Shown here: positions 4,805 to 56,823 of the stretch, piece after piece | How the letters are laid out: the number at the start of each line of letters is the position of its first letter | How positions within the stretch are numbered: position 1 is the first letter of the stretch | NCBI GenBank assembly: GCA_021780675.1 | Contig: JAJXYH010000045.1 | Span: 1-59,726 of the forward strand | From: a bacterium | GTDB lineage: Bacteria; Patescibacteriota; Microgenomatia; Levybacterales; UBA12049 | Length of the DNA: 59,726 nucleotides | Direction: 5' to 3' | The notes under the pieces: model-generated | What the model saw: the letters and a program-made list of their open reading frames with translations, nothing else | Database searches by the model: none | What the model was told of the DNA's origin: nothing | Made by a program: the position numbers and the translations under genes

Positions 4805-5620
4805 ATGGCAAAAAAAGAAAAACAAGTTAAAGTGATAGATCCTAAAAAAGAAAAACAGGATGTTCCGTCAATTACCCAAACGGATAAGGGGATTCATTTC
4901 TCGCCTAGGTTTATCGGGCTTTTGGCAGAAGAAGTTGCAAAAACTGTTGTTAGGACTTTACCCAAAAGACCAAAGGGAAATAAGAAGAAAAAAAACGGTA
5001 AACATTTGGAAAACGCGATCTTTTTAGACACATCCGCAATTATTGACGGAAGAATATTTGATGTAATAACCTTAGGCCTGTTTAGGGGCAGTGTGGTTAT
5101 CTTAGACAGTATTTTATTGGAGTTAAAGCACATTGCCGACTCCAAAGATTTAGTAAAGCGTGAAAGGGGTAGAAAAGGTTTGGAGCTTTTAGAAAAAGTT
5201 AAAAAAGTAAAGGGAATAAAATTGGAAGTTCTATCCGAAGAAAAAGAAAAAAATATGGGAATAAGAAAATTGCCCGAAGTAGATGAACGCTTAATTGCTG
5301 CTGCAAAAATAAATAAAGCAAGACTTATTACCTGCGATTTTAATTTGGAGAAAAAAGCCAATATTGCAAATATTACCGCGATAAACGTAAACACTTTGGC
5401 AAATGTTCTAAAAGTTATTGCGGTTCCGGGAGAATCTCTTCATATTCAAATTCAGCATAAAGGAAAAGATGTTACACAGGGTGTGGGGTATTTAGACGAC
5501 GGAACAATGATTGTTGTAGAAAATGCAAATTTTGACGTAGGTAAAGAATTGGATGTTGTGGTTTCGCGTGTTATACAAACTTCTGCCGGACGCATTTTAT
5601 TTGCTAAAAAATTCTTCTAA
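4805..5620 (+). CDS. PIN/TRAM-domain protein (YacL-like, lacking N-terminal TM region)
   Basis: LDTSAIIDGRI, RGRKGL, EVDERL, TCDFNL PIN motifs; GVGYLDDGTMIVVE TRAM domain; follows radA. Confidence 0.88.
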   Translation: MAKKEKQVKVIDPKKEKQDVPSITQTDKGIHFSPRFIGLLAEEVAKTVVRTLPKRPKGNKKKKNGKHLENAIFLDTSAIIDGRIFDVITLGLFRGSVVILDSILLELKHIADSKDLVKRERGRKGLELLEKVKKVKGIKLEVLSEEKEKNMGIRKLPEVDERLIAAAKINKARLITCDFNLEKKANIANITAINVNTLANVLKVIAVPGESLHIQIQHKGKDVTQGVGYLDDGTMIVVENANFDVGKELDVVVSRVIQTSAGRILFAKKFF

Positions 5621-33964: not shown

Positions 33965-35611
33965 ATGGAAAAGATAAACGAAAAAATTTATTCGATCTTA
34001 GAGAAAATAGCTTTGGAAATGGGCGCTAAAGACATTGATTTTAAAGCTGAACGTCCAAAAGACAGCTCGCATGGTGATTTTGCTTCAAATATTGCTTTGG
34101 TTTTAGCAAACAAAAGTCATGTTGTTAAGTCGGAGAGGTATCCATCAATTGGGAAAACTGTTATGGATTATGCTAATGAAATCGCAGGTAAAGTAAACGA
34201 TGAGGTATTCGATAAAGTTGAAGCAGTTTCGCCCGGATTTATTAATTTTTATCTTTCTAAAAAATATCTTCAAACCCAGATTTCGGAAATTATAGTAAAA
34301 GGCGACACTTACGGAACATCTAATTTAGGAAAAGATAAAAAGGCAAGCGTTGAGTTTGTTTCGGCAAACCCCACAGGGCCTTTACATATCGGCAATGCCC
34401 GCGGAGGACCACTTGGCGACACCATAGCTAATGTGCTTTCTAAGGCAGGCTACAATGTCACACGCGAGTACCTGCACAATGATGTTGGCGGGCAGGTTAT
34501 ACGTTTGGGCGAGTCTATTTATTACGAACTTCACCCGGATCAAAAATCACCCACCTACGAAGCTCAATATAAAGGTGAATATATAAAAGATTTGGCAAAA
34601 GCAGTGGAGGAAGTTTTGCAAGATAAAGACATGGATTTGGAGACGGAAAGGTTTATGGATGAAGCCGGCAGGGTTGCGGTAGAAATGATGCTTGCCGAAA
34701 TCTTAAAAGATTGCAAAGACATGGGAATAAGCTACGATAAAATTAGAAAAGAATCGGATTTAAGGCACGAGGTTTCCAAAGTTTTACCCAAAATTAAGGC
34801 TAGTCTTAAGGATCAAGATGGGGCGCTTTGGTTTGCGCCCAATGACGAATTTCTTAAAGACAGGGAAACGGTTGTTAAAAAAAGTGATGAAAATTACACA
34901 TATTTTGCCTCTGATATCGCTTACCACAATGAAAAAATGGCCTCAAACGACTTAGTAGTGGATATTTTGGGTAGCAATCACTCCGGTCATGTGCCAAGAA
35001 TCCTCGCTGTAATAAAGGCTTTAGGGTACGATACAAATAATTTTAGATGCGTTTTGTACCAGTATGTACGACTTAAGCGAAATGGGGAGGTCGTGAAAAT
35101 GGGAAAACGTTTTGGAACGTTTATTACGGCAAAAGAAGTTATCGATGAAGTGGGAAAGGACGCTTTTAGGTTTTTCTTCTTAATGTCTAATACAAATACA
35201 CATATGGATTTTGATTTGGAGCTTGCCAAAAAGCAATCAAGCGAAAATCCGGTATTTTATGTGCAGTATGCATATACAAGAATTGCCTCAATCTTTGCAA
35301 AATCCACGCTTAAAAATCCCGAAGGGGGAGACCTTACTCTTCTTAAAGAATCTGAGGAGCTGGTTTTGGCAAGAAAACTATTGGAATTTCCGTATTTGGT
35401 AGAGGAAGTCGCCCAAAATTTGGAGGTTAACGCATTTATTAACTATACTATGGAGCTTTCTACGCTTTTTCATAAGTTCTATGAAGCACATCAGGTTATT
35501 TCTAAAGATTCAAAATTAACCCAAGCGAGGCTCGCTTTACTTAAAGCAACGCAAATTACGCTTAAAAATACTTTGGATTTACTCGGAGTCAGCGCGCCGG
35601 AGAAGATGTAG
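33965..35611 (+). CDS. argS: Arginine--tRNA ligase
   Basis: HGDFASN, VEFVSANPTGPLHIGNAR, NPVFYVQYAYTR, LGVSAPEKM. Confidence 0.98.
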   Translation: MEKINEKIYSILEKIALEMGAKDIDFKAERPKDSSHGDFASNIALVLANKSHVVKSERYPSIGKTVMDYANEIAGKVNDEVFDKVEAVSPGFINFYLSKKYLQTQISEIIVKGDTYGTSNLGKDKKASVEFVSANPTGPLHIGNARGGPLGDTIANVLSKAGYNVTREYLHNDVGGQVIRLGESIYYELHPDQKSPTYEAQYKGEYIKDLAKAVEEVLQDKDMDLETERFMDEAGRVAVEMMLAEILKDCKDMGISYDKIRKESDLRHEVSKVLPKIKASLKDQDGALWFAPNDEFLKDRETVVKKSDENYTYFASDIAYHNEKMASNDLVVDILGSNHSGHVPRILAVIKALGYDTNNFRCVLYQYVRLKRNGEVVKMGKRFGTFITAKEVIDEVGKDAFRFFFLMSNTNTHMDFDLELAKKQSSENPVFYVQYAYTRIASIFAKSTLKNPEGGDLTLLKESEELVLARKLLEFPYLVEEVAQNLEVNAFINYTMELSTLFHKFYEAHQVISKDSKLTQARLALLKATQITLKNTLDLLGVSAPEKM

Positions 35612-45947: not shown

Positions 45948-46538
45948 ATGAGAAAGTTTGTTATACTTATTTTGGCAATATTTATAGTTATAACTTCAAT
46001 TATTGCTTACTTTATGTTAACAGCGCCTCCCAAACAGATGTCGGAGGCCGAAAAAGAAGCCAAACTTGTCCAAATTTTAGGCAGGAAGCCGAATTTAACC
46101 GATACAACTCCCAAAGGAGGTACCCTTTATAAAGGGAAGTATGTAAGTTTTACGTATCCTGCAGCTGGTAAAATTTATACTTATAAAGATCCCAGTTTAA
46201 GGCAGGATACATCGGTACTGGAAACTTTTTCTTTTGATATCCAAAACCCAAGGCTTACCTTAAATTATTCGACGATTGACAGGTCTAACCTTTCGGGCTT
46301 AGAAGATATTCCGGATGTTAAGCTTAGACAACTTCCTTCAAGTGGTTATATTCAACAAGATGTTACAGCAGACGGTGTAAATGGCCTTTCTTTTGAAAAA
46401 CAAGATCAACAAATTGAAATGACAGCCTTTTTCTTTAAAAATAATAAGCAATATTCGATTTCTATAACCGGAATTAACAATAAAGATGTAGAAAAGTTGT
46501 TTTATGAGGTAATTTCCAGCCTTAAGTTTACTCCTTAA
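45948..46538 (+). CDS. Membrane-anchored protein, PsbP/DcrB-like fold suspected
   Basis: N-terminal TM; YVSFTYP, VTADGVNGLSF, NKQYSISITG pattern. Confidence 0.55.
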   Translation: MRKFVILILAIFIVITSIIAYFMLTAPPKQMSEAEKEAKLVQILGRKPNLTDTTPKGGTLYKGKYVSFTYPAAGKIYTYKDPSLRQDTSVLETFSFDIQNPRLTLNYSTIDRSNLSGLEDIPDVKLRQLPSSGYIQQDVTADGVNGLSFEKQDQQIEMTAFFFKNNKQYSISITGINNKDVEKLFYEVISSLKFTP

Positions 46539-47583
46539 GCTTTTTCTTGACTTCGCGGTTAATGTAGGATTTTAATAAGTATCTGATCACTAGTACAAGT
46601 AAAATTATGACTATGGCGATTACAGCCAGCGCTTTGTAGGGAATTACCCAGAAATTTATGGATTTTTCTAAGGAAACGTCTTTTGTGCCGTCGTCGTATA
46701 CAACAATCAGGTCTGCTGTGTACTTTCCAACGCGGAAACTGGTCAATTTATTCCAGTTGATCTGCAAAGTTTTGACTTGCTTGCCGTTTTTATCAAGCTT
46801 GGGTTGTCCGTTTTCCATTACCGGAACATATACTAAAAAGCCGTCGCTCCAGCTAACATCAAAAATTCGTTTGGTCGAAGGAATAATGTTTCCTGAACCC
46901 GGATTAAAGTCGATTGCAGCAATATTTTTATTGGTCCCGCTTGAAATAAAGATATTTCCATGGGGTAAGATATGCACGTTTCCGGAATTTTGTAGTACTA
47001 CTTTAAAGTCAACAGGTAAATATTCGCTAACATAGTTTGAGGTGGAAAAATCAACTATTTTAGCCTCTGCTTTTGCCCCGGCTTTTCTTACGTCAAGTAG
47101 TACTGGAATTGCTGCAGCTCCTGTTATTGCAGTGCCGGTTGTTTTAAGCGATGATCCTGTGTCTTGGGTAAAGGAAATTGCAAAGTAGTATCCATAAGCG
47201 GCGTCTTTAGGAATAGTAATAGTAAAAGGAATATCTGTCCATTCCAGTGGTTTTGCAACAAAAGTATTGCTTTCAAACTTAAACCAAGTGAGTGAATTAT
47301 CACTGGATGTGTCTTTTAATGTTAAATCTCCGTTTGCATCGCCGGTCATTTTTTTAACCTCAAGCTTTATAGGAAGCGGGGAAGTAGTATTATTCCTTAT
47401 CCTTATTTTGGTGTTAATCGTATCTCCCGGGTTTGCAGAAAGGTCTAAAAATACAGGAGAAACCGTAACGTCGTAATTAGCCGGAGTTGGAGATTGGGCA
47501 AAAGAGGTTTTTAAAACAATGAAAAGACCACCTAAACTTAGGATGAAAATGAGCAGTGCTAATCGTTTTTTCCCATATTTCAT
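46528..47583 (-). CDS. DUF916/DUF3324-like (WxL-interacting type) membrane-anchored protein, copy 1
   Basis: VTVSPVFLDLSANPG, AAYGYYFAI, LQNSGNVHILPHG, VGKYTADL, C-terminal TM + basic tail. Confidence 0.7.
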   Translation of the reverse strand: MKYGKKRLALLIFILSLGGLFIVLKTSFAQSPTPANYDVTVSPVFLDLSANPGDTINTKIRIRNNTTSPLPIKLEVKKMTGDANGDLTLKDTSSDNSLTWFKFESNTFVAKPLEWTDIPFTITIPKDAAYGYYFAISFTQDTGSSLKTTGTAITGAAAIPVLLDVRKAGAKAEAKIVDFSTSNYVSEYLPVDFKVVLQNSGNVHILPHGNIFISSGTNKNIAAIDFNPGSGNIIPSTKRIFDVSWSDGFLVYVPVMENGQPKLDKNGKQVKTLQINWNKLTSFRVGKYTADLIVVYDDGTKDVSLEKSINFWVIPYKALAVIAIVIILLVLVIRYLLKSYINREVKKKLKE

Positions 47584-47584
47584 A

Positions 47585-48652
47585 TCAGAACGATCCTGCG
47601 GCAGTAATTGTTAGTGTATCTGAATAGTCATTTGCAGCTGTTTGAGTGGCTGGGATTTTAGCTCTTGCATTAATTGTTACAGTGTCTCCGGCTGTTGGCG
47701 CAGTATTTGATGCCATTTGCTGGAATAAGGTTGTACTTACTCCTCCGGAGGTTGTATTAGTTCCGTTATACGCCGTTGCAATAGTTGGTGCTCCTGTTCC
47801 CGAATCGGCATCAATAACATAACCGGTGGTTGTTGCAAGGTCGTATACAGTTCCATAAGTCCCTGTTGGTACAGAAATATCAGCATTAGCTACTGTTGAA
47901 TGTAGTGCACCGAGCGTTGTTGTTCCTTGAGCTCCTTTTATCCAGGAGACCCAACCGTTTCTGGCGTTTGTACCAACTGTTTCGGTAACATTCCCCGATG
48001 AAACAGTGCTGGTTGAAAGTGTGCCGAGGGCAATAGAATTACCACTTAAGGAAAATGTCATAGTTGCTGAGACAGAGGCTGATACCGTAACTTGTTCTCC
48101 GCCTGAGGAAACGATTGATGCAGCCCAATTTAGCTGATCTGTGTATGGTGCGCCACCCAATGTTTCAAGCTCTCCATTTTGATTATTTCCCGCAGGACCA
48201 ATAGTTGAGGATGCTCCTGTAAAATTAAAGCAATAAAAATTACCTGCTACAAACGATGTTGTTGGGAAGGTTACAGAAAGTCCATTGACGCTGGTTGCGG
48301 TACCGATTCCCGGCCAGGCTGTTGCAGCTCCACCTCCAGAAGGGTCTGTTGGTAAGTTAGTAGTCGTAGTTGTCCAGTTGGATGCTGTACTGGAAATGAT
48401 CCAGCCTTGAGGAAATACGATAGTTGTTGCAGTTTGGGTGGTTAATGTGGATTTAAGACAAGCTGTACCGGAAATAGCTTGTCCAGTTGAAAGTCTGTCT
48501 AGTCTTACAAAGCCCTCCGTTACGGTCGCGTTAGCTAATTGTGGTTGAAGTAAAGGGTAGAGAACTAAAAGCAAAAGTGAAATATTTAAAACAACGCTCA
48601 ATAGAACTCTGGGATTTTTTAAATTATTTACTTTAATTTTGGGAAATTTCAT
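47585..48652 (-). CDS. Secreted Thr-rich protein with C-terminal WxL-like domain (small)
   Basis: Signal peptide; TNARNGW; ends ANDYSDTLTITAAGSF. Confidence 0.7.
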   Translation of the reverse strand: MKFPKIKVNNLKNPRVLLSVVLNISLLLLVLYPLLQPQLANATVTEGFVRLDRLSTGQAISGTACLKSTLTTQTATTIVFPQGWIISSTASNWTTTTTNLPTDPSGGGAATAWPGIGTATSVNGLSVTFPTTSFVAGNFYCFNFTGASSTIGPAGNNQNGELETLGGAPYTDQLNWAASIVSSGGEQVTVSASVSATMTFSLSGNSIALGTLSTSTVSSGNVTETVGTNARNGWVSWIKGAQGTTTLGALHSTVANADISVPTGTYGTVYDLATTTGYVIDADSGTGAPTIATAYNGTNTTSGGVSTTLFQQMASNTAPTAGDTVTINARAKIPATQTAANDYSDTLTITAAGSF

Positions 48653-48749: not shown

Positions 48750-50357
48750 CTAGAAGCTACCTGTGGCTATTAGCGAAATAAGATCAGTATAGTCTCCTGC
48801 AGTCGGCGTGGTTGAAGAAGCTTTTGCTTTTAGTTCAAAAGAAGCCTGCCCACCTGTAACAGGAGTGTTGCTGGAATCAGACAAAGTGCGTTTACTTGTA
48901 TCAATAACTCCGACATTATTGCCCGTTCCGGCATATGGTGTATCAAACACCATAGGTCCGCCCGAAGTTTGAGTGGTACTTGTTCCCTGCAAGCCATAAC
49001 CTTCTGAAATGGTTGATAAATCATTAGTTGTGCTATTAATAGTATAGTTTCCGGCACTGATACTTTTTAGACCATTGTTAGATCCGTAAATGTAAATTAA
49101 GCCACCGTTTACAGCGTTAGTGGTAATATTGGTGGTAACTTTATCGGAAGACGTACTTATAGAACCTGGAGTTAAACTTCCTAAATTTATATTAAAAGGT
49201 GGAGTAGATTGACTGGTTGTCTGGACACTAAAAATAAGTGTAGGGTTTGTAGTTGCAGAATTTGCACTTTGACTCCAGAATCCCTGTTGATAAGCACCCG
49301 TTCTTGCCGCCACCCGTGCGTAATAGGTTGTTCCACCGGTTAAACCGATTATGTCAAATCCGGTAGTGCTTCCCCAAAGTGTATAGTTTTGAAAAACAGG
49401 TTTTGTGCCTAATGTATCATCAGCTTGAACGAAATATATGTTTGTACTAAAAGTAGGGTCGGTGGAAACTTGAATTACATATGTGGCATCAGTTGGATTT
49501 GCACCGTTATCGATTACGATATGTAGTTTATTATAGTATCCGGATGGATTAGTAAATATAGGGGCGAGTGGCGTATTTGGTTCAAGAGTATAGGTAAGGC
49601 CAGGAAGAGTTAAGTAATTGGTTGAAGATAGTGAGGCTGTTTCTATTTCGCCTAAAATACCTTGAAACATATAATTTGTTGAGCTTGAGCTGGCGCTTCC
49701 ACCCGCACCAAATCCAAAGTCCAACAATTGGTAATTTGTGCTTACGGGATTAGCTGGAGTTGGTGTCGGTGATGGTGACGGGGTTGGTGTAGGAGCCGGC
49801 GTATAGGTTAAATCGGTTTGACTAGCGGTAACCATTGCAGCTGTACCTCCACCCCCACCCGTTGACCCAAGAGTTGCTACATATTTTATTCTTAAAGCGT
49901 CAATTTGAGTTTTGGTTAGGGAAAGCCCATTCGCAGAAAAAGTATGGTCTGTTAAAGTGCCATTAACTAAATTTACCGTACTCCCAATTTGAACAGTTGG
50001 GTCGGTGCCATCAGTAGAATAATAAACGTCTAAAGTACCGCTTCTTCCCCCTGTTTTATCGGCGCGTACTGTAATTGTCATTGCCGTTACGGTTTGGACA
50101 TCAGCAGGACTTGCTGTGTTGGTATAAACATAAGTTGCGGTCACACCGTTTGGGGTTTGAATATAATTTGTGTCGTTTGGCGAAGTAGTTCCCTCGCTTA
50201 TGCAGCTATATAGATTAGTAGTGCACGTACCTGATGTCCAGTTGGTTGTGGTAATATCTCCGTTTGCATAAATAGTTCCGGAAGCTGCGAACGCTATACC
50301 TCTGAATAAAATTAGAAATATTGCGATATATATTGATATATTACTAAATCTTTTCAT
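48750..50357 (-). CDS. Secreted multidomain protein (PT linker, FN3-like, C-terminal WxL-like domain; large)
   Basis: Signal peptide, PTPTPSPSPTP linker, GLTGGTTYYARVAA FN3-like strand, TNAVNGG, ends AGDYTDLISLIATGSF. Confidence 0.7.
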   Translation of the reverse strand: MKRFSNISIYIAIFLILFRGIAFAASGTIYANGDITTTNWTSGTCTTNLYSCISEGTTSPNDTNYIQTPNGVTATYVYTNTASPADVQTVTAMTITVRADKTGGRSGTLDVYYSTDGTDPTVQIGSTVNLVNGTLTDHTFSANGLSLTKTQIDALRIKYVATLGSTGGGGGTAAMVTASQTDLTYTPAPTPTPSPSPTPTPANPVSTNYQLLDFGFGAGGSASSSSTNYMFQGILGEIETASLSSTNYLTLPGLTYTLEPNTPLAPIFTNPSGYYNKLHIVIDNGANPTDATYVIQVSTDPTFSTNIYFVQADDTLGTKPVFQNYTLWGSTTGFDIIGLTGGTTYYARVAARTGAYQQGFWSQSANSATTNPTLIFSVQTTSQSTPPFNINLGSLTPGSISTSSDKVTTNITTNAVNGGLIYIYGSNNGLKSISAGNYTINSTTNDLSTISEGYGLQGTSTTQTSGGPMVFDTPYAGTGNNVGVIDTSKRTLSDSSNTPVTGGQASFELKAKASSTTPTAGDYTDLISLIATGSF

Positions 50358-50374
50358 ATTAATTTATCTACTTT

Positions 50375-50794
50375 TTAAAGTGGTAAGTAGAAAACACTTT
50401 GCCCAAATAATGTATGTAAGTAATCGTATGTATGAATTTGCGTAATTCCTTTTTTGTTTGCCAAAACCGCTCTTAAACTTTGTGAAAAAGTAAGATCGGT
50501 TGATTTGTAATTAATTAGCGTCTTTAATGCAGCCTTAATGTCACGTTCTTCTGGATAAATAATATTTATGTCCGAAATTGAGACTATTCTTAGAAAGTCT
50601 TTTGCAAGAGATGGGCTAATTTCACTATAAATTTGATTATAAACTTCCAAAAGGGTATAGATATCGGTAAAAAGAGAGTATTTTTCTAAGGCAAAATACC
50701 TAAAATAAGCAGAAGATTGTTCATATTTTTGATGCGCACGATTAACAAAGGCATAAAATGCACTTCCTGAGATGTAGACTTTTTTACTTATCAT
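50375..50794 (-). CDS. VapC-like PIN-domain protein with degenerate active site
   Basis: VYISGSAFYAF, TLLEV, TFSQS, HTYD correspond to VapC DTSAFYAL, E, SFTD, TFD. Confidence 0.72.
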   Translation of the reverse strand: MISKKVYISGSAFYAFVNRAHQKYEQSSAYFRYFALEKYSLFTDIYTLLEVYNQIYSEISPSLAKDFLRIVSISDINIIYPEERDIKAALKTLINYKSTDLTFSQSLRAVLANKKGITQIHTYDYLHTLFGQSVFYLPL

Positions 50795-50878
50795 AAGAAA
50801 TGTTTAACTGCTAAAGTGTATAAAATATCAAATTATGCCGTATTGTCAAGCTAAATTAAAAAATCTACAAAGATTATT

Positions 50879-51160
50879 TTAGCTTGACAAGATAAGACTT
50901 GCGCCCCGGCCTTTTAGTCTGAATAATGGATCATCAAGGGTAAAGGTTTTGGAAGGTTTTAGGCTGTTTTTAAGCACATTTACTTTTTTTGTTTCGTTGC
51001 TAAAGTCCTTATTGAAATCAGTTAAGCTTGATTCTTTAATCCTAATATTTCCACCAGCCTTAATTGCTTTAAGACGTCCCTCTTTTATATAACGACGAAT
51101 TGTTAGGGGGTGTACTTTTAAAATAAATGCAACTTGATTAACGTTAAATAAATTATCCAT
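50879..51160 (-). CDS. Excisionase/MerR-type HTH DNA-binding protein with antitoxin-like tail
   Basis: FNVNQVAFILKVHPLTIRRYIKEGRLKAIK.GGNIRI; C-terminal DDPLFRLKG. Confidence 0.85.
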   Translation of the reverse strand: MDNLFNVNQVAFILKVHPLTIRRYIKEGRLKAIKAGGNIRIKESSLTDFNKDFSNETKKVNVLKNSLKPSKTFTLDDPLFRLKGRGASLILSS

Positions 51161-51178
51161 ATTTTAATAATTTTTTAG

Positions 51179-51332
51179 TTTTCAATTTTTAATTGAAAAT
51201 TTTAAGACCCCAAAAATTTTAAATTGGTTTATATAATTATATACATTATTATGCAATAATATGCAAGTTTATTATATTTTTGACCCATAGCTTTAAAATC
51301 GGTTAAATTAATATTACCTACGGTAATATTAA
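51179..51332. promoter_or_regulatory. Divergent promoter region with three palindromes
   Basis: TTTTCAATT-3-AATTGAAAA (51179-51199), TATATAATTATATA (51230-51243), TTAATATTACC-3-GGTAATATTAA (51308-51332). Confidence 0.55.
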
Positions 51333-53579
51333 ATGCTTGAGCTTAACCTTAAAAAACTTGGATTTTTCACAAGGGTCTTTTTGGCCTTTACGTTAGCCTT
51401 AGTTATATTTTCCCCTTTACTCGTGAAAAATGCAAGTGCGGCAGCCGGGATTAATAGAGTAATAAATTTTCAGGGAAAATTAGTTAATAATCCTTCTGCA
51501 ACAAACGTATCTAATTCGCCCTACACGGTAGTTTTTTCACTTTACGATCAAGCAAGTGGGGGAACTGTATTGTGGTCGGAAACTCAAACTGTAATCACAG
51601 CAGACGGAATTTTTAGGGTAGCGTTAGGTTCGGTTACACCTTTTCCGGCAAATTTTAATTTTAACTGGTCCGGGCTTTATTTAGGCATAAAAGTAGGTTC
51701 GGATTCGGAAATGACACCAAGAATTCAATTGGCATCTGTTCCATATGCGTTTAATGCACAGCAAGTTGCAGGGTTAACAGTTCAGGACGACAGCGGAAAT
51801 GCTTCTACATCGGGAACGCTTCAGGTTGGAAATTCTAAAATCGTAACTTTTAAAGGCTCAAGCGGTTTAACGTTTAATGACCCAGGTGCTTCGGTTACCA
51901 TAAGTTTTCCGACTACAGGAACGCTTACTTTAGTGGATACTTCAACTTCGCAAACTTTAACCGGAAAAACAATCGGAACAGGCGGGTTAACTTTTAATAC
52001 TACGGGAACGGACATTACAACAACTGCTAATCAAAATTTTATAGTTTCTCCAAACGGAACCGGGCTTATCGGTTTTAATACGAATTCACCTTTATCAAGC
52101 ATAGACCTACAAGGAAACCCGGTGACTGGGGGGACGCTGTCCATCGCCTCAGTCTCCGGGCAGACTTCATTTGCTGCGTTTGTAATTGACAATAGTGGAA
52201 GCGGTGATTTATTTACTGCTTCATCTTCCGGAGAAACTAAATTTAATATTGCAAGAAATGGCAATATTACTCTAACCGGAGCGGTTTTGATTAGTGGTTC
52301 AAATGGAAGCGGACAATGTTTAACAGGTGGATCAGCGGTTAAATGGGGTACTTGCGGGGGCGCTCCGCCGGGGGGTTATCCGTTTTTTAATGCGGGGGGA
52401 TACATCATTCAAAATATCACCACTGAAGATTTATTGCTTGGTGGAAACTCTACTTCTACGGCTAAATTTGCCTTTACCGGTCTTGATACGAATCAGACAC
52501 AAGCTTCTTTTTCCGGACAATTTAATTTAATGCCAAATAATGGTTACGGGGGCAATGCATCTATTTCTGCGGGAATGGTTTTGGGGGCGATGATAGGGCC
52601 GGTTATTCAAACTACAGACAATAAGGCTATTATAATCGGAGGAAATACAACCGGAAATATTAATTTTAGTCCTAATAATACTCCAACGATTAATTTATCG
52701 CCAAATACATTGACTTTTGTTGGGGCCGGCATTAGTCAGATTAATACATTAAATAATCAACATTTGTCCATTAATCCCGGTGGAGGTGGTTTTTTGGGAA
52801 TAAATACCGACGGTATAACACCTGTTGCAAACGTTGATATTAGGGGAGATGTCGGGACAATTGCGGTAGCTTCAGTTTCTGGCAAGACCAGCTATGCTTC
52901 ATTAGTTGCAAATAATGATGGGGTGGGAGATATTTTTACAGCCAGCGCCAGCGGCTGGACAAGGTTTACAATCTCAAATTCAGGAAAAGTGACAATAGGT
53001 ACAAGTACTAATGGTTTGACTTTTGATCCTGCAAGCGGTCCAAATTACAACGGGTCCGCACAACCTTTAAAAACAATTATATTATCACCCGAATATGCAG
53101 GGGCAACACTAACTGCTTCGGGCTCGGCAACAACAAATGGTAATATGACCGCCGACGCTTCGCCGTCGGCCAACTTTAGAACTTATTATCAGTGGTCTAC
53201 AACACAAAGCTCAATGCAGGATTATACCGTGGTTGTTAGGGTTACACTTCCAAATGATTTTTCCTCTTGGGATAGTGCCAATGCAATGACAATAGACTTA
53301 GATACCGCAACAACAAATGCGACGCAAAACAAGTTAGATATCCTTGTCTATAATCCAACTTCAAGTACGAGCACGCCGGTTTTAATGCGAACGGCAAATA
53401 CCAGTACATCCGGATATAACTGGAGAACAATTGCAATAACTTCATCTGCATTTACGGGGGGGGCGGCAAAGTGGCAGACGTCAGGTCAAACAGCAGTTAT
53501 TTATTTAAAAATGTATGCTGCCAGCCCTGGCGTAACACAAATCGGAGATATTGTTTTAAATTATTATGCTAAATTCTAA
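51333..53579 (+). CDS. Secreted tail-fibre-like/adhesin protein (748 aa)
   Basis: Signal peptide; INFQGKL...EMTPRIQLASVPYAFNA N-domain; two ASVSG.TS.A...G.GD.FTAS.SG.T.F repeats. Confidence 0.7.
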   Translation: MLELNLKKLGFFTRVFLAFTLALVIFSPLLVKNASAAAGINRVINFQGKLVNNPSATNVSNSPYTVVFSLYDQASGGTVLWSETQTVITADGIFRVALGSVTPFPANFNFNWSGLYLGIKVGSDSEMTPRIQLASVPYAFNAQQVAGLTVQDDSGNASTSGTLQVGNSKIVTFKGSSGLTFNDPGASVTISFPTTGTLTLVDTSTSQTLTGKTIGTGGLTFNTTGTDITTTANQNFIVSPNGTGLIGFNTNSPLSSIDLQGNPVTGGTLSIASVSGQTSFAAFVIDNSGSGDLFTASSSGETKFNIARNGNITLTGAVLISGSNGSGQCLTGGSAVKWGTCGGAPPGGYPFFNAGGYIIQNITTEDLLLGGNSTSTAKFAFTGLDTNQTQASFSGQFNLMPNNGYGGNASISAGMVLGAMIGPVIQTTDNKAIIIGGNTTGNINFSPNNTPTINLSPNTLTFVGAGISQINTLNNQHLSINPGGGGFLGINTDGITPVANVDIRGDVGTIAVASVSGKTSYASLVANNDGVGDIFTASASGWTRFTISNSGKVTIGTSTNGLTFDPASGPNYNGSAQPLKTIILSPEYAGATLTASGSATTNGNMTADASPSANFRTYYQWSTTQSSMQDYTVVVRVTLPNDFSSWDSANAMTIDLDTATTNATQNKLDILVYNPTSSTSTPVLMRTANTSTSGYNWRTIAITSSAFTGGAAKWQTSGQTAVIYLKMYAASPGVTQIGDIVLNYYAKF

Positions 53580-56500
53580 ATTAAAGAAAAAAGTTTTTAT
53601 TTATTTAACAATCTTAAGTTTGTTGCTAAGTTATTCGCCGGTTGGTGTTTATGCTCAAAGTGCAACCAGCTCGTCACATTTAAGCGCAACAGGAACTGAA
53701 GTAAATATTGCATCAGACGCAAGTGCTTCTGGTTCTTTACAAAACAATAATTTCGATGCAAATTATGTTAATTCAACCTTCGTCCCATCTGCAAGCTTTT
53801 CGGGTCCTGATGTTAATTCATTATCTCCCAACTTTGACGCCCCGTCGAATAATCAGCAGCTTTCAACTACGAATAATAGCAATAAGAATTGGACTATTAA
53901 TTCAAAGAAAAATAATTTACAGGCAGACGAAGATTATCAGGTAAATTTGGATAATATTTCTCCTCAAGATGTTAGTGTGCAAATTTACGATCAAAATGGC
54001 AATTTAGTTAATTCAAATTTTAATAAAATTGCAACATCAAACGGAACTTCAATTGATATATCTCCTCCGAGTGCTTTTCGTCCCGGGAAATATACAGTTA
54101 AGATTACCGATACAAGCGGAAACGTTAAACAACAGGACTTTACCTGGGGAGTTTTGGCAATAAATACCGACAAATCAATCTATTTACCAAACGAAACTGC
54201 AAATTTAGCCATGGCGGTTTTAGATAATACCGGAGATATGGTATGTGATGCAAATGTTACCTTAACTATTACCGATCCAAACGGAAAACAAACAGTTCTT
54301 TCAACTTCGGACAATTCAATTATTGTAAATCCTTCATGTCATTTGCATAATTTCACATTAATTCCGGATTACCAAGCGTCTTTTACGGTCGGGGGAGTAG
54401 GAGCTTATCAAATGGACCTTTTGGCCGAAACTACAGACGGTACAAGACAGATTAGTGATTCATTTCAGGTTCAAAATTCAGTAGCTTTTGATATAACAAG
54501 GCAAACCGCGACCAGGATTTATCCTCCCTCGGAATATCCGGTTAACCTAACCGTAAAATTTAATCAGGATTTTAACGGTCAAATTATCGATTATGTTCCT
54601 AATGATTTTAATATATTGCCGTCAAGTAGTTCGGCAGCACCAACATTTGATGTTAAAGAAATTGCAACGCCGGTTAAAAATCAAGATGGAAATTTACAAA
54701 GCTTAAAATTATTACTTCCGTTTAAAGGAACTGTTGATGAAACTTTGGGGTTTGGACAGCATCTTTTGGATCCTAAAGAGCGTGATTATTATGCCCAATA
54801 TGGTTTGGCGGGCCACGACGGATTAGATTTTGCCATGCCGATTGGAACTCCGGTTTATTCAACGGACGACGGAGTGGTAATAATGGCGGGCGGCGAAATT
54901 TATGGAACAACAGTTGTAATTCAACACGGTTGGGGAAGAAGTTACTATGGGCATTTAAGTAAAGTCGAAGTTACTGTTGGACAGAAAGTTTCAAAAGGCG
55001 ATGAAATTGCATTATCGGGAAATACCGGAATAACAACTGGGCCTCATTTGCATTTTGGCATAAAATTTAATCAAAACGATCCAAATAACGGATATTACGG
55101 AAAAACCGATCCTAGTCCTTACCTTGGATTAACACCACAAAATCAAACCGTTGCAACCAACATCAATAACACTGTTAAAGCAATTGTTTGGACAGTTAAT
55201 GCAAGAGCGGGGGACACGCTAAATCTTTCTTATAATTTTAAAATGCCAATGATTAGTCCGATGTTTTACACCATTGGACCCTTGAGTTTTGTTTCCAATA
55301 ATCAAGTAGTTTTTCAGGAAGTACGTAAGTGGCAGTTGGCAGCAGATGCGGCAACAGTAATAATTATTACTTCTTCTTATACCGATCCTTGTGGTAGTAA
55401 TTGTTGGACTGTTCCGTCTGATTGGAATATTACAGGCAGTACTATTGAAGCTGTTGGCGCCGGTGGCGGTGGGGGAAGTGGAACAGCCGGTACAAATACT
55501 GCCGGAAGAGGCGGCGGAGGCGGCGGGGGCGGCGGAGAGTATCGCAAAATTAGTAGTTTTACGACAACTCCGGGAAGCGTAATTCCATTTTCTATTGGAA
55601 TCGGTGGCACAGGAGGTAACGGTGGAAACGGTACTGCAGGAACTGTAACCACTTTTAATACCACCAGTCTTGTAGCAAACGGCGGCGGATTTGGTGGTTG
55701 GAGTAATAGTACTGCGGGTGGTTCGGCAGGTGCAGGCGGAACCGGCGGAACAGGTGCGGCAGCAAACTTTAACGGCGGTGCAGGCGGAGTAGGTGGAGCA
55801 GCTTCGGGAAGTAACGGAGGCGGCGGTGCAGGCGGCGGAGGAGCCGGTGGTACAACTGCTGTTGGTGGAACTGCCGCGAACGTTGGAACTTCAACTACGG
55901 GAACAAATGGAGGCGCAGGAGGAGCAACCAGCGGCGGTTCGGCAGGGACACAACCGGGCGGAACGGGTGGCAATGGAACGGTTTGGACTGATACGACTAC
56001 TTTAGCAACTGGTGGTGCAGGCGGCGGAGGCGGCGGCGGAACAGGAGGAATAAGTGCGGCCGGAACAATTGGCGGAACCGGCGGTAATTATGGCGCAGGC
56101 GGTGCTGGCGGCGGCGGAGGAGGAAAAAAAGGCGCGCTTGGAATGGGAGGAAACGGAATAAATGGAGTAATTGTAATTACTTATACTTCGGTTGCCAATA
56201 CAACGCAGTATGCTTACAGATTCAGAAGCGATGATGGCAATGAAACAACCGGAACATCCTTAGTAGCGCAAAATACGGCAATAACGGGTTTGGCCTTATC
56301 GACAAATATAAGATTAAGGTTTTTAGTTTATAATTCCGGCGGTTCTGCAGCCAGCGCTCAAACTTTCAGGCTGGATTATGCGCCGCTTTCAGGAAGCTGT
56401 TCAACTTCTACATTTGCACCAATCCCAACATCTTCTGGTACAGACCCTTTTTATATGACTACCACTTCTTATTACATTAATGGAACCGCGTCAACTAATG

Positions 56501-56823
56501 TTTCAACCGGACCTGCGGTAATTGCAGATCCAAGCGGAGGAACTTTTATTGCAGGCACTTTGGTTTCGGCTACTTCCAATACCTCGGCCTCGATAATTTT
56601 AACAAGTAAAGGTTTTACTGAAGTTGAGTATAACTTTGCGGCAAACTCAAACGCTGTTGGTGGAAATACATATTGTTTTAGGGTTAGTAATTCAGGTACG
56701 CCGATTAATACATACTCTCAATATGCCCAGGCAACAGTTGCTGGTGGCGGACCGGCAGTGTATCAGTTATTAAGACATGGAGAATGGTTCAGTAACGGAA
56801 TAAGACAACCGTTTACGTTCTAG
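53566..56823 (+). CDS. Giant secreted protein with internal M23 peptidase and glycine-rich domain (1085 aa)
   Basis: Signal peptide; GHDGLD, YYGHL, TGPHLHFG; long GGGGG-rich region; ends LLRHGEWFSNGIRQPFTF. Confidence 0.85.
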   Translation: MLNSKLKKKVFIYLTILSLLLSYSPVGVYAQSATSSSHLSATGTEVNIASDASASGSLQNNNFDANYVNSTFVPSASFSGPDVNSLSPNFDAPSNNQQLSTTNNSNKNWTINSKKNNLQADEDYQVNLDNISPQDVSVQIYDQNGNLVNSNFNKIATSNGTSIDISPPSAFRPGKYTVKITDTSGNVKQQDFTWGVLAINTDKSIYLPNETANLAMAVLDNTGDMVCDANVTLTITDPNGKQTVLSTSDNSIIVNPSCHLHNFTLIPDYQASFTVGGVGAYQMDLLAETTDGTRQISDSFQVQNSVAFDITRQTATRIYPPSEYPVNLTVKFNQDFNGQIIDYVPNDFNILPSSSSAAPTFDVKEIATPVKNQDGNLQSLKLLLPFKGTVDETLGFGQHLLDPKERDYYAQYGLAGHDGLDFAMPIGTPVYSTDDGVVIMAGGEIYGTTVVIQHGWGRSYYGHLSKVEVTVGQKVSKGDEIALSGNTGITTGPHLHFGIKFNQNDPNNGYYGKTDPSPYLGLTPQNQTVATNINNTVKAIVWTVNARAGDTLNLSYNFKMPMISPMFYTIGPLSFVSNNQVVFQEVRKWQLAADAATVIIITSSYTDPCGSNCWTVPSDWNITGSTIEAVGAGGGGGSGTAGTNTAGRGGGGGGGGGEYRKISSFTTTPGSVIPFSIGIGGTGGNGGNGTAGTVTTFNTTSLVANGGGFGGWSNSTAGGSAGAGGTGGTGAAANFNGGAGGVGGAASGSNGGGGAGGGGAGGTTAVGGTAANVGTSTTGTNGGAGGATSGGSAGTQPGGTGGNGTVWTDTTTLATGGAGGGGGGGTGGISAAGTIGGTGGNYGAGGAGGGGGGKKGALGMGGNGINGVIVITYTSVANTTQYAYRFRSDDGNETTGTSLVAQNTAITGLALSTNIRLRFLVYNSGGSAASAQTFRLDYAPLSGSCSTSTFAPIPTSSGTDPFYMTTTSYYINGTASTNVSTGPAVIADPSGGTFIAGTLVSATSNTSASIILTSKGFTEVEYNFAANSNAVGGNTYCFRVSNSGTPINTYSQYAQATVAGGGPAVYQLLRHGEWFSNGIRQPFTF

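Follow-up and report, generated by a model that had tools for sequence, protein, structure and literature searches.

Toxin-antitoxin (TA) loci of the VapBC and FitAB type place an antitoxin gene first, followed by a closely spaced gene for a protein of the PIN fold. The two small genes analyzed here, an antitoxin-like helix-turn-helix (HTH) gene and a PIN-like gene, share this order with them, as well as an N-terminal DNA-binding domain followed by a flexible conserved C-terminal tail in the first product, repeats in their own promoter, and the VapC fold of the second product. They differ from VapBC and FitAB in that the acidic tetrad is degenerate and among the least conserved positions of the protein, the DNA-binding domain belongs to the Xis/BldC-like kind and not to the AbrB, RHH or Phd types, and the operator-like array consists of four phased direct repeats instead of palindromes. 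Unlike these loci, the pair is also single-copy, syntenic, restricted to one class and predicted to be joined to pilus genes in both transcription and translation.

Makarova, Wolf and Koonin (2009) predicted a PIN-MerR class of TA systems, in which a truncated MerR HTH is associated with a PIN protein (PMC2701414). The present pair likewise combines a truncated MerR-type HTH, devoid of the dimerisation helix, with a PIN protein. [quoted passage not shown] For the HTH domain, the best sequence and structure matches were Streptomyces BldC and the phage/ICE excisionases Pukovnik Xis and RdfS. BldC binds two to four direct repeats head-to-tail, with a 4:1 stoichiometry on four repeats (PMC5859096); it differs from the HTH protein by having neither tail nor partner, and by its repeat unit (AATT-N4-C, compared with AATTGYATAW here). 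Unlike the situation of excisionases, no integrase is found near the HTH gene.

SMG5 has a degenerate PIN domain that acts without catalysis. Yeast Utp23 also has a degenerate PIN fold, used for binding, in which the catalytic acidic residues have been lost (PMC5499597). Both resemble the PIN-like protein in keeping the fold while losing these residues, but they are eukaryotic RNA-processing factors, whereas the protein described here comes from a bacterium and has a DNA-binding protein as its partner in the pair.

The first description of Pam-type pili in CPR bacteria dates from 2026, and these pili are not known to have a reported regulator. The genes next to the pair resemble the pam operon of Candidatus Mycosynbacter amalyticus (Troman et al. 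2026 preprint, PMC13278184) in what look like Pam-type pilins and membrane-anchored chaperones and in a conserved tail-fibre-like neighbour, although the pilin similarity is weak here and below the curated cut-off. The main text of that preprint mentions neither HTH nor helix-turn-helix and describes no regulator of the pam operon, and none of the three "PIN" matches shown in it is a PIN protein.

Results

The window (the whole stretch of DNA analyzed, 59,726 nucleotides) harbored the following features around the pair:

46528-47583, minus strand: chaperone-like gene, 351 aa, matching WxLIP_PGBD weakly
47585-48652, minus strand: second pilin-like gene, 355 aa
48750-50357, minus strand: first pilin-like gene, 535 aa
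50375-50794, minus strand: PIN-like gene, 139 aa, VapC fold (PIN), degenerate acidic tetrad S9/E50/Q105/D124
50849-50822, minus strand: promoter-like TTGACA-16-TG-TATTTT before the PIN-like gene
50843-50859 / 50874-50890 (element 50822-50890), minus strand: window-specific 17-bp inverted repeat across the HTH stop codon
50879-51160, minus strand: HTH gene, 93-aa Xis/BldC-like winged HTH (HTH_17 and TIGR01764)
51229-51268, minus strand: operator-like array, four direct repeats phased at exactly 10 bp
51280-51309, plus strand: promoter-like site of the divergent fibre gene, TTGACC-18-TAAATT
51308-51332, no strand assigned: perfect 11-bp inverted repeat TTAATATTACC-N3-GGTAATATTAA, abutting the ATG of the fibre gene
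51333-56823, plus strand: divergent operon (fibre-like and M23)
51333-53579, plus strand: fibre-like protein, 748 aa
53566-56823, plus strand: giant M23 peptidase protein, 1085 aa

The AF2 model of the 139-aa PIN-like protein (pLDDT 87.9, pTM 0.82) was matched by Foldseek to VapC20, VapC26 and many other VapCs (probability 1.0, TM 0.75-0.81), the best PDB matches being M. tuberculosis VapC20 and VapC26. The modeled structure is, with high confidence, a VapC-type PIN fold, i.e., a parallel beta-sheet in the order beta-alpha-alpha-beta-alpha-alpha-beta-alpha-alpha-beta. Pfam, NCBIfam and PADLOC scans returned nothing usable for this protein, Pfam giving no PIN match at E<1, and its sequence profile reached only a marginal VapC26 match in the PDB (E 0.33). 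The family was recognised through fold and profile search: 8 of 25 members matched PF01850 (best E 4.5e-7; the window member had no match), and the family profile search reached canonical PINs at E 1e-8 to 1e-4. Family sampling covered the best-listed 120 of 217 clusters at 90% identity, among which identity ranged from 56 to 91% and length was nearly constant. Internal stop codons were absent from every full-family PIN-like match (38 genomes). One cluster member was labelled "Sulfotelmatobacter" and probably comes from a mis-binned contig.

Columns corresponding to residues 9, 50, 105 and 124 displayed D/E/D/D in the distant relatives retrieved by profile search and S/E/Q/D in the window protein, as read in a first-pass annotation of this DNA, according to which E50 and D124 are kept while S9 and Q105 replace expected Asp residues. 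The conserved metal-binding acidic set (D, E, D, D) of PIN/VapC proteins is thus interrupted in the window protein at S9 and Q105. Alignment of orthologues, which that annotation had suggested as a check on the substitutions, revealed a degenerate acidic tetrad throughout the clade. Among the best-listed 120 of the 217 clusters, position 9 was occupied by A (60), S (29), E (16), T (13) or D (2), so that the first Asp was changed to Ala, Ser or Thr in 85% of members, and position 105 by Q (83), K (9), E (8), N (6), H (5) or D (4); the four catalytic positions ranked 115th, 110th, 113th and 96th of 139 in conservation. The acidic-tetrad positions were among the most variable of the PIN-like protein, while other, family-specific motifs were invariant (K4-K5, R19, Y56, I-S-P-S-L-A-K-D-F at 59-67, K91 and T122-x-x-Y-L-H-P-L-F-G).

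Acidic residues kept in the window clade were D44 (93%), E/D50 (86%) and D/E124 (95%); the sister clade (f8) keeps D9, E/D50 and E105, and the catalytic residues lost differ from clade to clade. Canonical PINs of the same class kept all four acidic residues, and an HTH partner was not detectable for those examined. Because three acidic residues are kept per clade, we infer rather than observe the loss of all nuclease activity in the PIN-like protein, which, given these residues, may have a non-canonical or weak nuclease activity. The D7A mutation, equivalent to the change at position 9, inactivates Shigella VapC, and Shigella VapC mutant structures appeared among the Foldseek matches of the PIN-like model.

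The HTH protein scored above the curated cut-offs of Pfam HTH_17 (PF12728; 39.5 bits for a cut-off of 27, E 6.7e-10) and of TIGR01764 "excise" (32.9 bits for a cut-off of 28.8, E 6.3e-8), in line with its previous description as an excisionase-type HTH, and below that of the NCBIfam BldC model (NF033787; 21.9 bits for a cut-off of 77). The best PDB matches of its DNA-binding domain were Pukovnik Xis (4j2n), BldC-DNA (6amk/6ama) and RdfS, with 30-34% identity and a TM of 0.8 to BldC and the excisionases. This domain (residues 1-50, AF2 pLDDT >90) is followed by a variable flexible linker and a conserved C-terminal tail (pLDDT 53-72), for which the model predicts flexibility like that of type II antitoxins. 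The protein ends in TFTLDDPLFRLKGRGASLILSS; the tail consensus, F-x-x-DDP-L/F-F-R-L-K-G-R-G, was kept across all clades, and the VapB-like ending attributed earlier to the window protein is a conserved trait of the family.

The intergenic region that separates the HTH gene from the divergent fibre gene (51161-51332), already singled out by the first-pass annotation, contained a conserved operator-like array located 68 bp upstream of the HTH start. In the HTH sense, its repeats read ACTTGCATAT TATTGCATAA TAATGTATAT AATTATATAA (consensus AATTGYATAW), and a plausible promoter of the pair itself (TTGCAT-N17-TATATA) lies inside it. The array is a candidate autoregulatory site. Four direct repeats with 10-bp phasing fit the BldC-style head-to-tail multimer mode, the binding itself being a prediction. 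The array was unique in the 0.96-Mb genome (score 40.3, next best 20.1, null maximum 9-19), and the genome-wide regulon search displayed no second array, the next-best match falling inside a CDS at null level. Under leave-one-out scoring, and with independent genomes, the array was the top match upstream of the HTH gene in 33 of the 34 loci. Since the array is linked in cis to the HTH gene in most genomes, much of the co-occurrence of array and pair is not independent evidence, and the independent cases for their link are the three genomes with a detached pair (G225, G344 and G303), where an array with the same GTCAA-spacer-array geometry was still found at the pilus/fibre promoter. No array was found in the 11 pilus loci of genomes without the pair (best score at most 9.5).

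The -35 of the fibre promoter corresponded to a conserved GGTCAA/GTCAA element, located 13-20 bp from the array in relatives. GTCAA also occurred in genomes without the pair, and is therefore considered part of the fibre promoter and not of the operator. A longer version of the inverted repeat at the fibre ATG, AATTAATATTAC-N4-GTAATATTAATT, was conserved in close relatives.

Downstream of the pair, the last base of the PIN-like stop codon is at 50375 and the following gene begins at 50357, confirming the 17-bp spacing noted before, with no terminator-like site between the PIN-like stop and the 535-aa pilin-like gene. This large gene had been called WxL-like; a Pam-type pilin-like assignment fits better, as its product has a C-terminal domain in common with the 355-aa neighbour (E 2e-8). 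The 355-aa protein matched NF058581 (CPR_Pam_pilin_C) weakly (1.9e-5, 24.8 bits, below the cut-off of 55), and the 535-aa protein had no NF058581 match. The hydrophobic C-terminal segment of the 351-aa chaperone-like protein is read as a putative membrane anchor by comparison with PamC/PamD (PMC13278184).

The HTH and PIN-like genes were adjacent in all 34 loci, co-oriented and with the antitoxin-like gene first, their gap being at most 16 nt or replaced by an overlap in about 20 of these loci. In half of the loci (17/34), a Pam-type pilus operon followed the PIN-like gene directly; its first pilin gene overlapped the PIN-like gene by 4 bp in 5 of these loci and began at most 21 bp away from it in 8 more. 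A fibre homologue diverged from the HTH gene in 19 loci. The pair was single-copy and chromosomal, and its synteny extended across families of a class whose genomes measure ~1 Mb. Of 401 genomes taken from the whole phylum, 5 had the pair, all five belonging to the CPR class of the window. The chromosomal context of the module was conserved across many genera, with MreB, a WecG-type glycosyltransferase and the fibre gene as recurrent neighbours.

Other families of the class, and several genomes of the same family, carried the pair with no pilus genes beside it, and 20 pilus-bearing genomes of the family (about half of such genomes) lacked it. Pilus control cannot be its sole or original role. 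The earlier view of the pair as the head of a surface operon thus held for 17 of the 34 loci, often with translational coupling, but the pair is not exclusive to this island. Synteny among orthologues, also proposed as a check, was complete for the two genes themselves and extended to adjoining pilus genes in 17 loci.

Discussion

The folds, the replaced residues, the pattern of conservation, the adjacency of the two genes and the array with its distribution, all established from sequence, are consistent with a TA-derived, non-catalytic repressor complex, domesticated as a chromosomal transcription switch, a reading that we hold to be modestly probable. The pair is probably an on/off switch for a recently discovered pilus type and not a poison-antidote pair. 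The TA origin proposed by the first-pass annotation is supported by the VapBC-like architecture, the conserved tail and the clade-wide degenerate active site, whereas the nuclease loss it presumed is one that we infer.

An alternative to this switch is a working VapBC-type TA, whose PIN-fold protein would still be a toxic RNase through a non-canonical D44/E50/D124 site, the pair stabilising the surface island or serving stress or phage defence and the array being the usual TA autoregulatory operator. We consider it unlikely. In its favour, the locus has every element of TA architecture (the antitoxin comes first, the genes lie close together or overlap, and a conserved tail accompanies the DNA-binding domain), three acidic residues are kept in each clade, pairs of PIN and truncated MerR proteins were predicted as a TA class (PMC2701414), and VapC/COG1487 proteins are listed with 2-4 active-site residues, both active and inactive members being predicted (PMC5499597). 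Against it, few positions in the family vary more than the canonical catalytic ones, and 85% of members have Ala, Ser or Thr in place of the first Asp. PADLOC gave no match for the PIN-like protein, and its gene is translationally coupled to pilin genes. Type II TA loci are further recognised by an active toxin and, usually, a mobile, patchy, multi-copy occurrence, whereas the pair has a degenerate site and is single-copy, vertically inherited and syntenic. Sequence constraint bears on another reading, in which the HTH protein is the sole regulator and the PIN-like gene a functionless remnant in the operon: identities of 56-91% with near-constant length (best-listed 120 of the 217 clusters), invariant motifs, a reading frame without stop codons in 38 genomes and a gene never found apart from the HTH gene (34 loci) are hardly those of a remnant, and the HTH tail, which does not bind DNA, is conserved too. 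This reading therefore seems improbable, even though the PIN-like catalytic residues are degenerate and BldC-type proteins require no partner (PMC5859096).

The TIGR01764 "excise" match and the presence of phage Xis and RdfS among the closest structures would also suit a true excisionase (recombination directionality factor), for which the repeats would be binding sites at the attachment site of a mobile island. Xis proteins do bind tandem direct repeats, which counts for this possibility. However, the tyrosine integrase family PF00589 had no match on the 59.7-kb contig, the two genome copies being on other contigs, the module occupies a conserved chromosomal context in many genera, and the array lies in a divergent promoter region beside conserved -35-like elements. 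The excisionase or mobile-island reading was rejected on account of the absent integrase and the conserved synteny, and we regard it as very improbable.

Under the preferred reading of a domesticated, non-catalytic repressor, the ancestor would have been a toxin-antitoxin cassette of the VapBC type, whose antitoxin was a truncated MerR/Xis-like protein. As Xis and BldC do, the HTH protein would bind the four repeats (51229-51268) as a multimer arranged head to tail, at a position presumed to overlap the promoter of the pair itself and to lie a short way upstream of the -35 that serves the divergent fibre/M23 promoter. The PIN-fold partner, putatively without RNA cleavage or toxicity, would have been kept as a structural partner, docking the basic tail that is conserved at the C-terminus of the HTH protein, perhaps in what is left of its own acidic pocket, and either bridging HTH subunits as a co-repressor or tuning HTH binding in the resulting complex. 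As the PIN-like gene continues directly into the pilin genes, the switch would set the transcription of the Pam-type pilus operon, and probably also that of the divergent fibre/M23 operon, the presumed direction of regulation being repression. A more specific version, which we advance tentatively as a possibility short of probable, is that the dead VapC, together with the Xis/BldC-like protein, makes up a dedicated, possibly signal-responsive switch, in which one array co-ordinates the Pam-type pilus and the fibre/M23 hydrolase arms of a CPR episymbiont attachment apparatus and the PIN fold serves as co-repressor or sensor.

If true, this would be the first cis-element and regulator to be defined for CPR pili, as well as a clear example, in bacteria, of a toxin turned into a transcription cofactor. 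The module is a concrete, testable control element, made of a 40-bp array and two small proteins, and is amenable to study in E. coli although the organism is uncultured. It would also represent a well-sampled natural example of TA cassette domestication (>200 sequence clusters, 34 loci with context), in which selection would have moved off the catalytic site to other surfaces while the antitoxin tail and the operator were retained. Genomes with the pair, without it and with a detached pair constitute a comparative series.

In the window, the two genes of the pair are separated by 84 bp, whereas the corresponding spacers of relatives are mostly of 16 nt or less. The element carried by this spacer may be an internal promoter or an attenuator, and its inverted repeat was neither repeated in the genome nor conserved in relatives. 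Because the 84-bp spacer has its own promoter-like site, the pilus operon of the window may be partly uncoupled from the array.

Gene organization around the HTH and PIN-like genes

The window's genome, a CPR/Patescibacteria assembly of 0.96 Mb (98% completeness, 35% G+C), harbored one copy of the PIN-like gene, preceded by the HTH gene with which it forms the pair. The surrounding features were arranged as follows.

50375-50794, minus strand: 139-aa PIN-like gene, 17 bp ahead of the 535-aa gene
50879-51160, minus strand: 93-aa HTH gene, 84 bp ahead of the 139-aa gene
3' of the PIN-like gene, minus strand: genes of 535, 355 and 351 aa, in that order
Divergent from the minus-strand HTH gene, across a 172-bp spacer: 748-aa fibre-like gene and 1085-aa M23-peptidase gene
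51229-51268: four-repeat array, read in the HTH sense as ACTTGCATAT TATTGCATAA TAATGTATAT AATTATATAA (consensus unit AATTGYATAW)

The genes downstream of the pair resembled the Pam pilus operon of Ca. Mycosynbacter amalyticus (PMC13278184). The 84-bp spacer within the pair contained an inverted repeat of 17 bp and, before the PIN-like gene, a promoter-like TTGACA-16-TG-TATTTT, both specific to the window when compared with relatives; they may leave the pilus genes partly independent of the array. The Pfam PIN model also matched two other sites in the window: a domain at 5018-5359 (plus strand) within a 271-aa ORF at 4805-5620 (E 1.3e-6, above cut-off), and a fragment at 58880-59020 (minus strand) broken by two stop codons.

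A PIN fold with a degenerate active site

According to its predicted structure, the 139-aa protein is a PIN by fold. The AlphaFold2 model, built on 25 relatives (pLDDT 87.9, pTM 0.82), had its strands and helices in the order typical of PIN domains, and Foldseek against the PDB returned M. tuberculosis VapC20 and VapC26 first, followed by dozens of VapC/FitB chains (probability 1.0, TM 0.75-0.81). The family-model scan of the protein itself gave no match, while 8 of its 25 relatives matched Pfam PIN (best E 4.5e-7). Searched with a profile, 1.84 billion representatives yielded only 8 clusters with E below 1e-30 and 34 with E below 1e-10, past which the matches graded into ordinary PIN proteins. 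Within a 90%-identity cluster of this CPR-specific protein, that of P0021, one member was labelled 'Candidatus Sulfotelmatobacter sp.', probably a mis-binned contig (3.6 kb).

Ordinary PINs aligned to the window protein carried D, E, D and D near-invariantly at columns 9, 50, 105 and 124, against S, E, Q and D in the window protein, so that the catalytic residues had been correctly assigned in the first-pass annotation. The alignment of orthologues that it proposed as a check showed catalytic degeneracy across the clade, with three acidic residues still conserved. Among the best 120 of 217 90%-identity clusters of the window clade, the residues were A60/S29/E16/T13/D2 at position 9, Q83/K9/E8/N6/H5/D4 at 105, E74/D29 and others at 50, and D82/E32 and others at 124. 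In a working nuclease, catalytic positions are expected to top the conservation ranking; by column entropy in the same set, the four positions ranked 115th, 110th, 113th and 96th of 139. Invariant residues were located elsewhere in these 120 clusters (K4-K5, R19, Y56, K91, ISPSLAKDF at 59-67 and T122-x-x-Y-L-H-P-L-F-G).

The sister-clade family f8, about 30% identical, kept D9, E/D50 and E105 and displayed T or S at 124. From these clade-wise patterns, different lineages of the HTH-linked family lost different catalytic residues, as would be expected once catalytic constraint is released. Two canonical PINs from the window's class, both weak profile matches, kept all four catalytic residues, and a BLAST search of their loci gave no HTH homologue. 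The acidic residues conserved in the window clade were D44, E/D50 and D/E124 (Ser or Thr at 44 in canonical PINs); these may form what is left of a metal site, or a pocket in which a basic peptide docks. The published PIN classification recognises degenerate PINs such as Utp23 and gives the VapC group 2-4 active-site residues (PMC5499597).

The HTH partner

The 93-aa protein scored above the curated cut-offs of HTH_17 and TIGR01764 ('excise'). Its family (at least 825 90%-identity clusters) consisted in all clades of a near-invariant winged HTH (residues 1-50), a variable linker and a conserved tail, F-(T/S)-x-D-D-P-(L/F)-F-R-L-K-G-R-G. In the structure model, residues 1-50 reached pLDDT above 90, while linker and tail, which include a single short helix (78-81), were of low confidence. 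Type II antitoxins are built in this way, with a DNA-binding domain and, after it, a flexible conserved tail, and a TA class combining PIN with a truncated MerR was predicted in 2009 (PMC2701414). The closest sequence and structure matches were the mycobacteriophage Pukovnik Xis (4j2n), BldC-DNA complexes (6amk, 6ama) and the RdfS excisionase, with identities of 30-34% and a TM near 0.8. Further HTH_17 domains in the window's genome (C40:9539-9673, C40:2050-2187 and C27:3203-3355, two of them within very large ORFs of 736 and 1145 aa) are possibly paralogues and might recognise similar DNA.

Distribution and gene context of the pair

The PIN-like gene was present in 21 of 301 genomes sampled from the window's class and 23 of 61 from its family; across the phylum, all 5 carriers among 401 sampled genomes belonged to that class. 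The HTH gene lay directly 5' of it in all 34 fetched loci (19 + 15), mostly with a gap of at most 16 nt or a 4-nt overlap. Longer gaps contained inserts, in one case a 23S-rRNA-intervening-sequence protein (IVP) gene and otherwise structured spacers.

IVP genes (four-helix bundle, PF05635) were repeatedly inserted in or beside the pair (L001:7556-7927; L038:9108-9497; L028, ~2500-2900; L042, ahead of the HTH gene), in the HTH/PIN-like spacer or the array-to-HTH interval depending on the genome, a pattern suggestive of an insertion hot spot or of an association with no evident explanation. In several relatives, the HTH/PIN-like spacers (L027:9918-10052; L029:9390-9500; L041:9909-9997) were filled by inserts that are unrelated and strongly structured, with predicted energies of -33 to -47 kcal/mol, some with short tandem repeats reminiscent of miniature mobile elements.

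A pilin-like gene directly followed the PIN-like gene in 17 loci, overlapping it by 4 bp in 5 and within 21 bp in 8 more, and the fibre gene was the pair's divergent neighbour in 19. Elsewhere the neighbours were a secreted SH3_3 protein (~900-1000 aa), MerR-like proteins, WecG-type or other glycosyltransferases, and MreB. Within the family, the pilus chaperone accompanied the PIN-like gene in 21 of 22 genomes and occurred without the pair in 20. Given these varied neighbours and counts, the pair is a self-contained module that often, though not always, heads the pilus operon.

A phased repeat array upstream of the HTH gene

Tandem TG(C/T)ATA cores at exact 10-bp spacing, usually four, preceded the HTH gene in orthologous loci. 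The window's array is separated from the HTH start by 68 bp and from the fibre start by 64 bp; its four-unit score of 40.3 was the highest in the genome (runner-up 20.1, within coding sequence), and five simulated genomes gave 9-19. With leave-one-out matrices over 19 loci of 10-60 kb each, the best array was on the HTH strand in all 19, positioned 0-130 bp ahead of the HTH gene in 14 and 425-530 bp ahead of it in 4, three of these with an intervening IVP gene; in the last, G225, the fibre/pilin promoter carried it, and a weaker unit pair preceded the HTH gene. Among 15 further genomes outside the matrix, 14 displayed the array just upstream of the HTH gene (scores 20-47, second-best at most 8), and in the other a contig end cut the upstream region.

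The array also occurred where the pair had a different position. In G225 the pair is 3' of the pilus operon and the fibre/pilin divergent spacer still has a GGTCAA-N-array (31.9); G344 carries the GTCAA-TTTTCACGG-array unit twice, before the pilin operon and before the HTH gene; in G303, with the pair on a separate contig, an array of matching geometry (23.5) precedes the fibre gene. No array was found in 11 pilus loci of pair-less genomes (best score 9.5), while the GTCAA element was kept in both pair-less spacers read. GTCAA is the reverse complement of TTGAC, the fibre promoter's -35-like element; on these sequence comparisons, GTCAA is assigned to the fibre promoter and the array goes with the HTH protein. 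In L055 (G305) and L056 (G326), the orthologous fibre gene and pilin operon are directly divergent with neither pair nor array between them, providing natural 'empty-site' comparators for the cassette.

Additional four-repeat arrays were located directly upstream of an arginyl-tRNA-synthetase-like gene at L047:2030-2069 (G300, 28.0) and L053:16957-16996 (G344, 25.4), and none at the window genome's own such gene (33965-35611). Some lineages may have a wider regulon.

Candidate regulation of the pilus and fibre genes

Xis-type proteins bind DNA similarly to BldC, a mode that fits the window's four units one helical turn apart. BldC forms head-to-tail multimers on direct repeats, with a 4:1 stoichiometry on four repeats (PMC5859096). 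The HTH protein would bind the candidate array in a BldC-like manner. The array overlaps its own plausible promoter (TTGCAT-N17-TATATA in the window; in f8 genomes TTGACA is just upstream of the repeats, which reach the start codon), and its occupancy should therefore lower the HTH/PIN-like/pilin transcript. Its end is 11 bp upstream of the -35 hexamer of the fibre promoter, which occupancy could repress or activate. VapBC and FitAB are the model for a PIN-fold protein binding the tail of its DNA-binding partner, and by analogy the PIN-like protein would attach to the HTH tail and thereby bridge subunits of the HTH protein. From binding onward, we infer these steps.

The observation in the first-pass annotation was thus borne out, and its reading as a domesticated TA regulator heading a surface operon was supported in part: the degenerate VapC fold, the HTH partner, synteny and the operon link stood, the pair often heading a pilus operon but having other neighbours elsewhere, while array binding and regulation are its conditional component. 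The main alternative, a VapC that is still toxic, can appeal to the retained acidic D44, E/D50 and D/E124, and we regard it as unlikely. A functionless remnant is hard to reconcile with the conservation of the PIN-like protein and has a low probability; a true excisionase, with no integrase on the contig and conserved synteny, is very improbable.

The main text of the Pam preprint contains no HTH or helix-turn-helix, and among the matches listed none names a PIN protein or operon regulator (PMC13278184). What is new is the combination of a conserved, class-restricted degenerate VapC, an Xis/BldC-type HTH protein and a phased direct-repeat candidate operator, together with their link to the pilus and fibre genes of CPR bacteria.

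A long, perfect, AT-rich palindrome (51308-51332) adjoins the fibre gene start codon, with counterparts of the form AATTAATATTAC-N4-GTAATATTAATT at the same position in L027, L028, L029, L031, L032 and L054; it could serve a dimeric regulator as a second operator, or fold into a 5'-UTR hairpin controlling translation.
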